Positions 1,928 through 4,365 of a stretch of DNA of 10,994 bases are shown here, piece after piece. The stretch is from a virus. Lineage: Duplodnaviria; Heunggongvirae; Uroviricota; Caudoviricetes. The notes beneath the pieces are model-generated. The model was not told where the DNA came from. It searched no databases and worked only from the letters and a program-made list of their open reading frames with translations. The position numbers and the translations under genes are program-made. Positions within the stretch are counted from its first letter, which is position 1, and every line of letters begins with the position of its first letter. The stretch is taken from IMG/VR virus record IMGVR_UViG_2617270998_000005; one strand, written 5' to 3'.

Positions 1928-2429
1928 AATTCCATCCAGCTTTTTGTTGGTATTGCTGTCGATACGCAAGTTTGAAAGCAATTGCTTTTTCTATAAGTTC
2001 GTCAGTTTCACGATCCACTACGGCAGGATCAGCAAAAAGCAGTCCGGACTCCACCACATCGCCATATTCTTTGTTTAACCCGGCGATCATGTACGTGATG
2101 CTTTTTCCGTCACTAATTTCACGATACAACCTGAAATCATTAATCCGGATAGCCTCCATAATTGCAGGCACTAGCGCCGTGAACTTTTCACGCTTATCCC
2201 TGGTGTCGATAGCCTTCCAGCGTTCGAATATCTTCACTCGATTAACGCCAAGCGCTCGCTGATCAACCGCGCCACCTTCATCTGTGACACGCTGAACATC
2301 GATGTTCGGGCGCTCTTTCAAAGCCCAGAATGCTTCAGTGATTAATATCGTCGCCTGCTCCTGTGTCATTCCTGGTCGACATATCCAGGCATCCAGAGCC
2401 TCACGAGCCTGTTCAGGAGTGATTTTCAT
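1908..2429 (-). CDS. hypothetical phage protein (173 aa) between the cro-like gene and the replication initiator; possibly YdaT-like
   Basis: ATG at 2427-2429. Overlaps the dicC stop by 17 nt and the O-like gene start region. The YdaT-like suggestion rests on position (as in Rac ydaS-ydaT) and a weak remembered motif (REK...LVPAI), not on an alignment. Confidence 0.55.
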   Translation of the reverse strand: MKITPEQAREALDAWICRPGMTQEQATILITEAFWALKERPNIDVQRVTDEGGAVDQRALGVNRVKIFERWKAIDTRDKREKFTALVPAIMEAIRINDFRLYREISDGKSITYMIAGLNKEYGDVVESGLLFADPAVVDRETDELIEKAIAFKLAYRQQYQQKAGWNYEPSFC

Positions 2430-2640
2430 TGTTCAACCGCCCCGCCCGCTTCGTCTTACGATATTCGTCATAAACCTTGGGATCATACTGAAGCTCGCCG
2501 CCAGATGCCTCCTGTAGACGCATCGCGCGACCTTCAGGAACCAGCTCTTGCCATTGAGAAACAGCAGATGGGTCAACGCCAGCAGCTTTCGCTACTTTGG
2601 CTTTCGTACCGTAAAAATTAATTACGTCTGATTTAAACAT
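2413..2640 (-). CDS. dicC: Cro-like regulator DicC (75 aa)
   Basis: ATG at 2638-2640 with a GGAGGTG SD just upstream on the minus strand. C-terminal sequence VPEGRAMRLQEASGGELQYDPKVY...RAGRLNNENHS matches my recollection of E. coli DicC. Divergent from dicA. Confidence 0.8.
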   Translation of the reverse strand: MFKSDVINFYGTKAKVAKAAGVDPSAVSQWQELVPEGRAMRLQEASGGELQYDPKVYDEYRKTKRAGRLNNENHS

Positions 2641-2717
2641 CGCACCTCCAATATTGAGTTTTCTCAATGCTAATCACTCAAGGAATCTCAAGTCAAGGGT
2701 TATTAAGATATCTAAAT
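2641..2717. promoter_or_regulatory. dicC-dicA divergent control region with operator-like palindromes
   Basis: Perfect palindrome TTGAGttttCTCAA at 2654-2667. Three TCAAG(G) repeats at 2678, 2688, 2693. Palindrome AGATATCT at 2706-2713, just before the dicA ATG. Confidence 0.5.
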
Positions 2718-3125
2718 ATGAACGAGAAAACTTTAGGTCAACGCATTAGAGAAAGACGTAAGCAGGTAGGCTTAAGTCAAAACGGTTTAAGCAAAGCTGC
2801 TGGCGTATCTGGCTCATCAATTTCATTATGGGAAAGTGACCATACAGCCCCGCGCGGGCAAAATTTGCATCGCCTCGCCGAGGTATTGCAATGTTCACCA
2901 ACCTGGATACTGTTTGGCGACGAGGACAAAACACCAGCTCCCCCTGTTTCACTCGATAGTGCCTTAGACTTATCGGAAGATGAGTTAGAGATGCTGCGTT
3001 TGTATCGCGCACTTCCTAAATCAGAGCAACAAGCACAACTCAGCGAACTCCGCGCCCGCGTTGAGAATTTTAATCGCCTGTTCACCGAGCTATTAGAGGC
3101 TCGCAAACGCAACAAGCATCAATAA
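2718..3125 (+). CDS. dicA: phage repressor DicA (HTH_XRE family, 135 aa)
   Basis: Translation from the ATG at 2718 contains VLQCSPTWILFGDEDK and a C-terminal ...LRARVENFNRLFTELLEARKR, matching E. coli DicA as recalled. Length equals DicA (135 aa). The ORF-track start at 2667 lies inside the operator and is unlikely. Confidence 0.85.
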   Translation: MNEKTLGQRIRERRKQVGLSQNGLSKAAGVSGSSISLWESDHTAPRGQNLHRLAEVLQCSPTWILFGDEDKTPAPPVSLDSALDLSEDELEMLRLYRALPKSEQQAQLSELRARVENFNRLFTELLEARKRNKHQ

Positions 3126-3317: not shown

Positions 3318-3473
3318 ATGGATACTATCGATCTTGGCAACAGCGAATCTCTGGTATGTGGCGTGTTCCCCAACCAGGACGGTACGTTCACCGCGATGAC
3401 GTATACCAAAAGCAAAACGTTTAAAACCGAAAATGGTGCCCGTCGCTGGCTGGAAAGAAACTCAGGTGAGTGA
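3318..3473 (+). CDS. ydfA: small prophage protein YdfA (51 aa)
   Basis: ATG at 3318 with a GAGG SD. Translation MDTIDLGNSESLVCGVFPNQDGTFTAMTYTKSKTFKTENGARRWLERNSGE matches E. coli YdfA as recalled. It is the first gene of the dicB operon. Confidence 0.8.
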   Translation: MDTIDLGNSESLVCGVFPNQDGTFTAMTYTKSKTFKTENGARRWLERNSGE

Positions 3474-3474
3474 T

Positions 3475-4050
3475 ATGGATTTCGACACAATCATGGAAAA
3501 GGCTTACGAAGAATACTTCGAAGGCCTTGCCGAAGGCGAAGAAGCTCTCAGCTTCAGTGAGTTTAAACAGGCACTCAGAATAAGAATGTGCTCTCACAAT
3601 GACGCGGAGCACAAATATGAGAAGCAAAATCAGACCGCAGAAAATTTTGTTCTGGAACCCGGAGAAACGCTTTTCAAAATTCCCGTTACGTGCCCCATTT
3701 GCGGTTTTACATCAGAAGAACTTGACGACTCCTGTAACAATCAGGAAACAACCAAGTATGTCGAAGATGATACCGAGTGCGCACGAAGAACGATTATATC
3801 CACGAGTCCAAACTCCAGGACCAATAAATCTCACTTTGAGAGGGTGATTAATCCACTCCCCCAAACCAATAAAAAAGATGCCGGAGGACAAAAAACCCAA
3901 TGGAACAACGGGATATCTGTCAAAAAAAGACGTTCCATTAAAGACAAACAACGCAGCGCCAACAACTGTAAGCGCTTTATACCAGTAATCAATTTTCATG
4001 TTCTTAAGCGGATTTATTGGTGGTTGCGACATTGCTTAATGAATCCTTAA
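3475..4050 (+). CDS. ydfB/ydfC-region ORF (191 aa as a single open frame); N-terminal part credible, C-terminal part doubtful
   Basis: ATG at 3475-3477, overlapping the ydfA stop, with an AGGTGAG SD. The first ~120 residues look protein-like (MDFDTIMEKAYEEYFEGLAEGEE..., CPICG motif). The last ~70 residues are K/N/R-rich and coincide with a minus-strand hydrophobic ORF (3712..4032). It may be a fusion or may really end earlier. Confidence 0.45.
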   Translation: MDFDTIMEKAYEEYFEGLAEGEEALSFSEFKQALRIRMCSHNDAEHKYEKQNQTAENFVLEPGETLFKIPVTCPICGFTSEELDDSCNNQETTKYVEDDTECARRTIISTSPNSRTNKSHFERVINPLPQTNKKDAGGQKTQWNNGISVKKRRSIKDKQRSANNCKRFIPVINFHVLKRIYWWLRHCLMNP

Positions 4051-4309
4051 AACTGTGGTGATTTTAAGGATACCACCTCGCCTGACGTGGTTAAAAGCAG
4101 GCACACAACACGAAAGCGCACGGCGAAGTTCGTCTCACTGTACGGTGTCGTTAAATTTAATTCGACCGTGCGCTTCCGGTTGTGGCAACCCGCGAAATGG
4201 CGCGGCGGTAAGTATGGCGGGGTTATTCCTTCCCCGTTGAGGACACCGAGTTGTCAGGTTGACCATACGCTTAAGTGACAACCCCGCTGCAACGCCCTCT
4301 GTTATCAAT

Positions 4310-4365
4310 TTTCTGGTGACGTTTGGCGGTATCAGTTTTACTCCGTGACTGCTCTGCCGCCGTTT
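4310..4365 (+). ncRNA. dicF: DicF small regulatory RNA (about 53 nt; antisense regulator of ftsZ and other mRNAs)
   Basis: Sequence TTTCTGGTGACGTTTGGCGGTATCAGTTTTACTCCGTGACTGCTCTGCCGCC followed by GTTTTT matches DicF as recalled. It sits in the expected place between the ydfABC region and dicB. Confidence 0.8.

Follow-up and report, generated by a model that had tools for sequence, protein, structure and literature searches.

A 10,994-nucleotide (nt) stretch of DNA from a member of the Caudoviricetes (IMG/VR record IMGVR_UViG_2617270998_000005; hereafter the window is this whole stretch) comprises the immunity and early part of a Qin/Rac-like lambdoid prophage and carries a pair of antisense overlapping genes of which, on comparative evidence, both reading frames are under selection. 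The minus-strand gene, here called gene A, encodes a small, conserved, predicted membrane protein. The plus-strand open reading frame (ORF), ORF B, appears to be an early-operon gene whose first part evolves under ordinary protein constraint and whose second part, the tail, runs antisense through the whole of A, open to translation and otherwise free to vary. We consider it likely that the two form a lambdoid two-gene module with complete antisense overlap, in which the translation of B crosses A. The parts of the pair in the window are the following:

3475-4050, plus strand: ORF B, 191 amino acids (aa), stop codon TAA at 4048-4050.
3475-3576, plus strand: YdfB-derived N-terminus of B, 34 aa in common with YdfB of Escherichia coli K-12, upstream of a recombination junction.
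3652-3711, plus strand: conserved B peptide adjoining A, LEPGETLFKIPVTCPICGFT, with CPICG at 3691-3705.
3712-4047, plus strand: tail of B, 112 codons, the first 107 antisense to A in register and the last five facing A's ribosome-binding region.
3712-4032, minus strand: gene A, 106 aa, stop codon TGA at 3714-3712.

The lengths of the two ORFs, confirmed by the ORF listing and translations, had been given in an earlier note made from the letters alone, which left undecided whether the minus frame encodes a small membrane protein or owes its hydrophobicity to a Lys/Asn-rich opposite strand. A search for relatives of the minus product recovered full-length homologs of about 100-110 aa with 34-58% identity in Yersinia, Herminiimonas, Reinekea, and many metagenomes, the homologs overall spanning 34-88% identity. 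The family comprises 486 clusters at 50% identity, mostly of 100-115 aa, in a profile search of 1.84 billion representatives, and a genome scan placed it in gamma-, beta-, and deltaproteobacteria, in Arcobacter, and in several metagenome-assembled genomes (MAGs). The product of A bears the invariant motifs DYWYK and GLGEWINHP (family form GxGEW.NHP), the invariant residues of the family being Y16, W17, Y18, K19, and A20 and, further on, G56, G58, E59, W60, N62, H63, and P64. Searches with A in Pfam, NCBIfam, PADLOC (defence models), and PHROGs gave no significant match; the Pfam scan returned two sub-threshold, unrelated matches only, and distant A homologs gave two unrelated NCBIfam matches, both sub-threshold. 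An AlphaFold model built from the family alignment, with a mean predicted local distance difference test (pLDDT) score of 82, has helices at residues 17-32, 42-62, and 85-105 and a beta-hairpin at 65-79. The three hydrophobic segments pointed out in the earlier note coincide with these helices, and the model portrays the product as a probable inner-membrane protein with three helices.

Substitutions between diverged prophage copies concentrate at the third codon positions of A, with differences at positions 1/2/3 of 11/7/35, 8/10/22, and 26/18/51, and the ratio of nonsynonymous to synonymous divergence (dN/dS, Nei-Gojobori) is 0.06-0.16. Within lineages the A protein is unaltered, and the differences visible in translations alter B. 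The same pattern is seen among 82 near-identical E. coli copies, where the overlap contains 23 single-nucleotide polymorphisms (SNPs), 12 of them synonymous in A and only four in the plus frame; three of the four SNPs that occur in at least three copies, the three commonest of all, belong to those 12 (the count drew on the first IMG/VR scan, with 80 near-identical E. coli copies). Judged by its homologs and its third-position substitution bias, A is a real gene for a conserved small membrane protein that overlaps the ydfB/C-region gene on the opposite strand, the first of the two options that the earlier note had put forward.

ORF B begins one base past the ydfA stop, behind GGTGAGTGAT. Its frame is open from a further upstream ATG at 3433 to 4050, the ATG at 3475 giving the 191 aa, and Shine-Dalgarno-like purine runs precede the B ATG in 12 lineages. 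Outside A, the window-type B carries the motif PGE..F.IP..CP.CGF.SEEL, whose Pro, Cys, Gly, and Ile codons vary synonymously between lineages; the CPICG-type motif is also present in loci L034, L038, and L041 and, in a related version, in Roseateles (L006). A second B type has the motif M.YEFFERL....PGSV.ID.....V.L.GW and, between its closer lineages, a proportion of nonsynonymous differences (pN) outside A of 0.06-0.18 against a proportion of synonymous differences (pS) of 0.12-0.88. For the non-overlapped N-terminus of B, dN/dS is 0.05-0.26 between diverged lineages and 0.46 for one near-identical pair. When all six frames of the B segment outside A were compared, B's own frame was the only one free of stops and had the lowest pN/pS (0.31), and SNPs at 3475-3711 in the E. 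coli population comprise six synonymous and four nonsynonymous changes. These comparisons mark B as a genuine early-operon gene with its N-terminal 30-80 residues under purifying selection. The earlier note had thought the plus product genuine for about its first 120 residues; that it is genuine holds, and the selected, non-overlapped part is shorter, about 79 residues (3475-3711).

The only family match of B is phrog_35040, to which no function is assigned. A tblastn search of deposited phages for the N-terminal domain standing alone returned mEp390 only, and a further protein search of 5.8 billion sequences returned only four type-1 B proteins. A zinc-ribbon or Lar-like identity was considered and rejected, as a single CPxCG is conserved and type-1 B proteins are without it; the corresponding profile matches are weak (Lar-like PHROG, E = 0.29; rubredoxin-like Pfam, E = 0.13). 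Nor is B a full-length YdfB, which in K-12 has 42 aa: residues 1-34 alone match, and RefSeq flags the ydfB fragment as lacking its C-terminus.

The two frames overlap in register, with codon position 1 opposite position 3 and position 2 opposite position 2, and over the overlap B encodes a hydrophilic, K/R/N-rich tail. In this register the codons TTA, CTA, and TCA in A are stops in the plus frame. The window's A has none of them, for which the probability calculated from A's third-position usage elsewhere is P = 0.0004; calculated per gene from A's own codon usage, the probability of a stop-free frame is 0.0002-0.04 (0.0002-0.016 each in the first set of lineages). A does use A-ending codons, including the rare ATA and AGA as well as GGA and CCA, yet never those three, and its Leu and Ser positions change between lineages without ever yielding a B-frame stop. 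B-frame stops are absent from all of the first enterobacterial prophage copies (window, L041, L042, L034-37, and Yersinia L038-40; GC content 0.40-0.45). About 25 further diverged prophage lineages came from IMG/VR with the Pantoea homolog as query, and clustering at <85% nucleotide identity gave 20 clusters, of which 18 are without an in-register stop against a baseline of 10.4% in long ORFs of the same loci (binomial P = 3e-16; the lineages are not fully independent, though synonymous sites between clusters are near saturation). Among non-prophage A homologs with a GC content of at most 0.55, the antisense frame contains up to 17 stops (median 5) and is stop-free in two of 25 (Fisher P = 3e-8 versus the prophage clusters). 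The open B frame has 116-326 codons, about 150-210 in most lineages, and in most it ends 16-36 nt past the A start codon, a few running on downstream.

Stop avoidance is the sole signal seen in the B frame over the overlap, where its dN/dS is 0.85-1.7, and the pS of A is not below that of the adjoining non-overlapped B segment. Taken together, the relaxed tail and the undiminished synonymous divergence of A indicate that the tail is open but otherwise free to vary: stops appear to be purged from it while its amino-acid sequence drifts. The earlier note had named, as signs of a spurious partner, a lack of homologs or the disruption of a single frame by stops or frameshifts; in homologous prophages both frames are open. 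We therefore regard the pair as a well-supported case, on comparative grounds, of antisense overlapping genes with both frames under selection. Beyond what that note proposed, the plus frame too is under selection and the pair is a mobile module in many lambdoid prophages.

The A/B pair always lies beside a CI/DicA-type repressor, in two arrangements. In the left type (window, L034/L170, L038, L171, L172, and Pantoea L007) the repressor comes first, (ydfA) next, and B last. In the right type, CI occupies one strand and cro, B, and a cII-like gene the other, with about 36 nt from cro to B (L132) and 16-29 nt from the B stop to the start of the cII-like gene. B is co-directional with early lytic transcription in both types, and A is opposed to it. 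This recurrent layout identifies the pair, at the level of sequence, as a mobile two-gene module of many lambdoid prophages. Cultured phages that carry it are mEp390 and HannyBb, in which B alone is annotated, and the Burkholderia phage Bcep176, in which A is annotated (gp33); a tblastn search with A of about 50,000 deposited phage genomes found HannyBb, mEp390, and Bcep176 only, and no Pseudomonas phage. The product mEp390_039 (L184, 2462-2917) is B, and its record note likens it to Bcep176 gp33 (L185, 2366-2830), which is in A's strand and frame with an N-terminal extension; the records thus annotate opposite strands of homologous DNA.

Upstream of A in the window lie two elements that could serve its expression:

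4044-4048, minus strand: Shine-Dalgarno-like AAGGA of A, 11 nt before the A ATG.
4067-4094, minus strand: promoter-like element of A, with a -35 hexamer TTAACC (4094-4089), a 16-nt spacer between the hexamers, and an extended -10 TGgTATCCT (4075-4067).

The promoter-like element is the best sigma-70 match upstream of A and is kept in the window, L171, L041, L034, L038, and L159, the A proteins of which are only 51-58% identical. Right-type lineages have in common a TTCGCTTAAAAT element about 35 nt before the A start. As for terminators, the one candidate from a generic scan is a weak terminator-like site at 3535-3516.

Other features of the same region concern the start of A. A perfect 8-bp inverted repeat, CCTTAAAA / TTTTAAGG, with a 9-nt loop lies at 4045-4069 and covers the B stop, the A Shine-Dalgarno sequence, and part of the A -10; a similar repeat with changed arms is present in L034, L038, L041, and L171. 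The element may serve as an operator or fold into a hairpin in the RNA. A second hairpin, GCCTG-N13-CAGGC at 4080-4102, overlaps the putative A -35 and is kept in several lineages, in L159 with the compensatory stem GCCGGG...CCCGGC; it sits in sequence also common to K-12-type loci. Many right-type lineages (L131-L136) and Pantoea L007 start A with TTG, not ATG, behind AAGGA, which suggests deliberately weak translation.

In the explanation that we favor, A would be transcribed from its own promoter while the early operon is repressed, as expected for a gene that points against the early lytic operon and has a promoter-like element of its own; it would thus be made in the lysogen. B would be made early after induction or infection, and ribosomes would have to cross the antisense gene on the early transcript toward the next early gene, the cII-like gene in the right type and dicF/dicB in the window. 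With an early stop in B, about 330 nt of RNA inside the operon would go untranslated, open to premature Rho-dependent termination and to pairing with A RNA; the early genes further downstream would then be cut off by such termination or silenced by the complementary RNA of A. A translation bridge of this kind agrees with the close spacing of cro, B, and cII in the right type.

As to function, the closest analogy for A is sieB of lambda, P22, and Rac, a prophage-expressed gene for a small inner-membrane protein that lies in the early-left operon near the immunity region; the antidote to SieB, Esc, is made in frame from inside that gene, on the same strand. A likewise encodes a predicted membrane protein and is set in or against an early operon beside the immunity region, and in L041 and L042 it stands between kilR/antirepressor-like genes and the repressor, the place that sieB occupies in Rac. 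A is shorter, at 106 aa, the Pfam scan linked it to the SieB family neither by sequence nor by profile, and its partner ORF, unlike Esc, lies on the other strand. The most likely identity of A is that of a sieB-like membrane protein made in the lysogen, with a role in the exclusion or abortion of infecting phages, a proposal from position that draws on its mobility and on a layout resembling that of accessory ("moron") genes such as sieB. Its presence both at the immunity switch and in integron-like cassette arrays likewise makes it a candidate phage-exclusion gene.

The closest documented system is the olg1 (sie1)/gene 10 pair of the Pseudomonas phage Fc02, two extensively overlapping antisense genes in the lysis-lysogeny switch region whose products both exclude phages (PMC9936078). 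One partner is transcribed in the lysogen, the other is the early lytic gene that directly follows the cro-like ner, and one product is soluble while the other is found in the insoluble fraction (PMC9936078). Both systems are thus antisense protein-coding pairs at the switch. In Fc02, however, the insoluble-fraction partner is the early-operon gene, whereas here the predicted membrane protein opposes the operon; the search of deposited phages with A hit none of Pseudomonas; and Fc02 offers experiments with little comparative evidence, the reverse of the present case. Antisense overlapping genes of E. coli, such as ano and others found by ribosome profiling, are embedded ORFs missed by annotation, mostly young, short, strain-restricted, and based on expression data (PMC5960689, PMC9927249). 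Here, by contrast, the embedded gene A is the older and better-conserved partner, and the open frame is kept in at least 18 diverged lineages. A type I toxin-antitoxin pair of the hok/sok kind, in which a toxin of less than about 60 aa faces a non-coding RNA, was rejected as an identity for the module, A having 106 aa and three predicted helices and the opposite strand being a selected coding frame. Our literature search found no description of this A/B pair.

Several observations weigh against the favored explanation. The promoter-like element of A falls below threshold in a generic promoter scan and is a consensus match only, and A has no match among models of known defence proteins. B is interrupted in some copies: L042 has a TGA following CPVC, the 82 copies include two singleton nonsense SNPs, L175 has an in-register stop that is maybe identical with one of those two singletons, and the products P0073-P0081 are frameshifted. 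A also occurs without an open B frame in two prophage lineages (L161/162/164 and L166). Further, untranslated RNA follows the B stop anyway, over 230-490 nt in left-side arrangements and over 260 nt plus dicF in the window, so that Rho polarity is not the whole story in the left type.

The alternative that survives best is true dual coding, in which the tail is a working part of the full-length protein, for instance a disordered charged domain, or an Esc-like antidote that would neutralize A while the phage itself grows lytically. It gains from a stop-free frame that always reaches just past the A start, from the joining of a conserved N-terminal domain to the tail, from the left-side untranslated stretches that weaken the polarity argument, and from the precedent of Fc02, where both antisense partners can be active proteins. 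It is at odds with the relaxed dN/dS of the tail in the B frame, the undepressed synonymous rate of A, and the free variation of tail sequence between lineages. The AlphaFold model of full-length B is of low confidence as well, albeit from a single sequence, with a pLDDT of 39 and values below 50 from residue 35 on. We judge dual coding in this form rather unlikely. The evidence does not separate a needed tail from mere ribosome transit, though transit explains it best, and the broader proposition that an early protein with a hydrophilic antisense-coded half is made and used, for instance as an antidote to A as Esc is to SieB, stands a little higher in our estimate, as a doubtful but serious possibility.

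The A transcript could instead act chiefly as a long antisense RNA against early-operon transcripts, leaky or incoming, whose silencing would maintain lysogeny or exclude related phages, the A protein being secondary. The A mRNA would be fully complementary to the early transcript beside the switch, and there is a precedent in STnc6030 of prophage BTP1, an antisense RNA that excludes phage (PMC7067206). Against this stand the strong conservation of the A protein (dN/dS about 0.1) and the occurrence of A outside prophages, such as in cassette arrays, which have no early operon that it could silence. An RNA-level module is improbable to us; an RNA role of A is a possible addition and cannot be the main constraint.

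Still less probable, we think, is that A is the only gene and that the plus ORF over it is never translated to its end, being open through codon bias or chance. Chance leaves the in-register antisense frame open more often than any other, comparable windows are stop-free in about 10% of cases, the tail is without amino-acid constraint, and B does stop in some copies. Yet 18 of 20 independent lineages are open; A's other A-ending codons occur while the three stop-making ones never do, through all the turnover of Leu and Ser; the upstream part of B is clearly coding; and non-prophage homologs are rich in stops. That only the plus ORF is real and the minus-strand hydrophobicity an antisense artefact, as annotation pipelines choosing the plus ORF and the hydrophobic antisense of Lys/Asn-rich sequence might suggest, can be practically dismissed, since A homologs exist where the plus frame is full of stops and substitution patterns and dN/dS favor the A frame over the overlap.

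The surroundings of the pair in the window are as follows:

2413-2667, minus strand: dicC-like gene (DicC/Cro-like), divergent from the repressor ORF (ORF listing and RefSeq annotation).
2667-3125, plus strand: dicA-like repressor ORF with a DicA-like helix-turn-helix (ORF listing and RefSeq).
3318-3473, plus strand: ydfA (DUF1391), directly upstream of B in the same operon (RefSeq annotation of the identical locus).
3576-4066: the A/B cassette in its E. coli form, in place of the K-12 YdfB C-terminus and ydfC.
4311-4362, plus strand: DicF small RNA, downstream in the same early operon (Rfam RF00039, 72.5 bits).
Downstream of DicF, plus strand: dicB, ydfD, exonuclease, and excisionase.

The DicC/Cro-like gene and the DicA-like repressor make up the immunity switch adjoining the module; RefSeq calls only the last 135 codons of the dicA-like ORF (about 2718-3125). 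Homology with K-12-type loci ends near 3575, at the recombination junction. Compared with ydfB/ydfC of the dicBF operon in K-12 Qin, the pair has the same place between ydfA and dicF and B residues 1-34 equal YdfB, while the YdfB C-terminus and the entire ydfC are swapped for the 491-bp A/B segment, which accounts for the departure from K-12 gene structure that the earlier note had anticipated. At least 80% of the 3576-4066 segment is present in 796 of 5,426 complete E. coli genomes (about 15%), nearly all copies being at least 99% identical. RefSeq annotates either a truncated ydfB pseudogene or a 191-aa hypothetical protein (WP_000344958.1) at this locus, and in all 60 of 60 sampled RefSeq E. 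coli records the minus strand is unannotated and gene A missed.

Variant copies affect one or both genes. The products P0073-P0081 switch to the +2 frame, an 82-aa ORF at 3599-3847 in the window, at or shortly before CPIC (3691-3705), an indication that some E. coli strains carry frameshifted alleles of B. E. coli NRG 857C (L183) has an in-frame 45-bp deletion corresponding to window 3822-3866, with 15 codons lost per frame; both frames remain open and the invariant GLGEWINHPL of A is lost, so that this A is probably inactive. The A homolog of Shigella flexneri SFBU0723 (L027) ends after 11 codons (MSQPPINPLRT*) with similarity going on downstream and is probably a pseudogene. In a second E. 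coli variant (L171, 2692-3531; P0067-P0070) the B frame continues into ydfC without a stop, the long ORF of 271-280 codons comprising the ydfA-upstream frame, B, and YdfC.

Outside prophages, A homologs adjoin unrelated genes or, in Reinekea, belong to a run of small ORFs on one strand with attC-like repeats between them; their antisense frame is not open, and the examined loci revealed no conserved partner gene. The locus in Reinekea marinisedimentorum (L124, 1-2900), with repeat ends …TAAC and GTTAGG or GTTAGC and a ParD-like gene following, looks like a chromosomal integron cassette array. Arcobacter sp. Pygsuia-1 has three A homologs with identical protein at distant chromosomal positions (L015, L016, L017), which suggests a repeated mobile element. 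Desulfobulbaceae/Desulfocapsaceae MAGs (L028, L029, L031, L033) have a highly conserved, CPSCG-bearing small convergent ORF (…DELRERAVGEEFDATCPSCGMFHLT…) 60-300 nt downstream of divergent A-like genes, without overlap; it is probably not related to B.

To our knowledge, bacteria and phages offer few well-supported cases of coding genes that overlap antisense, and the majority come from single-strain expression data. For the present pair the comparative evidence is strong, as the frame is open over about 20 diverged lineages and amino-acid constraint on it is relaxed. The finding also exposes an annotation gap: a conserved family is missed in about 15% of complete E. coli genomes and in the phages HannyBb and mEp390, since pipelines call the longer antisense ORF instead. 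A frame that is open and unconstrained separates the need for translation through a region from the need for the resulting protein, two notions that commonly go undistinguished. Should the tail of B nevertheless prove to be made and used, the module would be a deeply conserved, mobile, and truly dual-coding pair that serves two phases of the phage life cycle.

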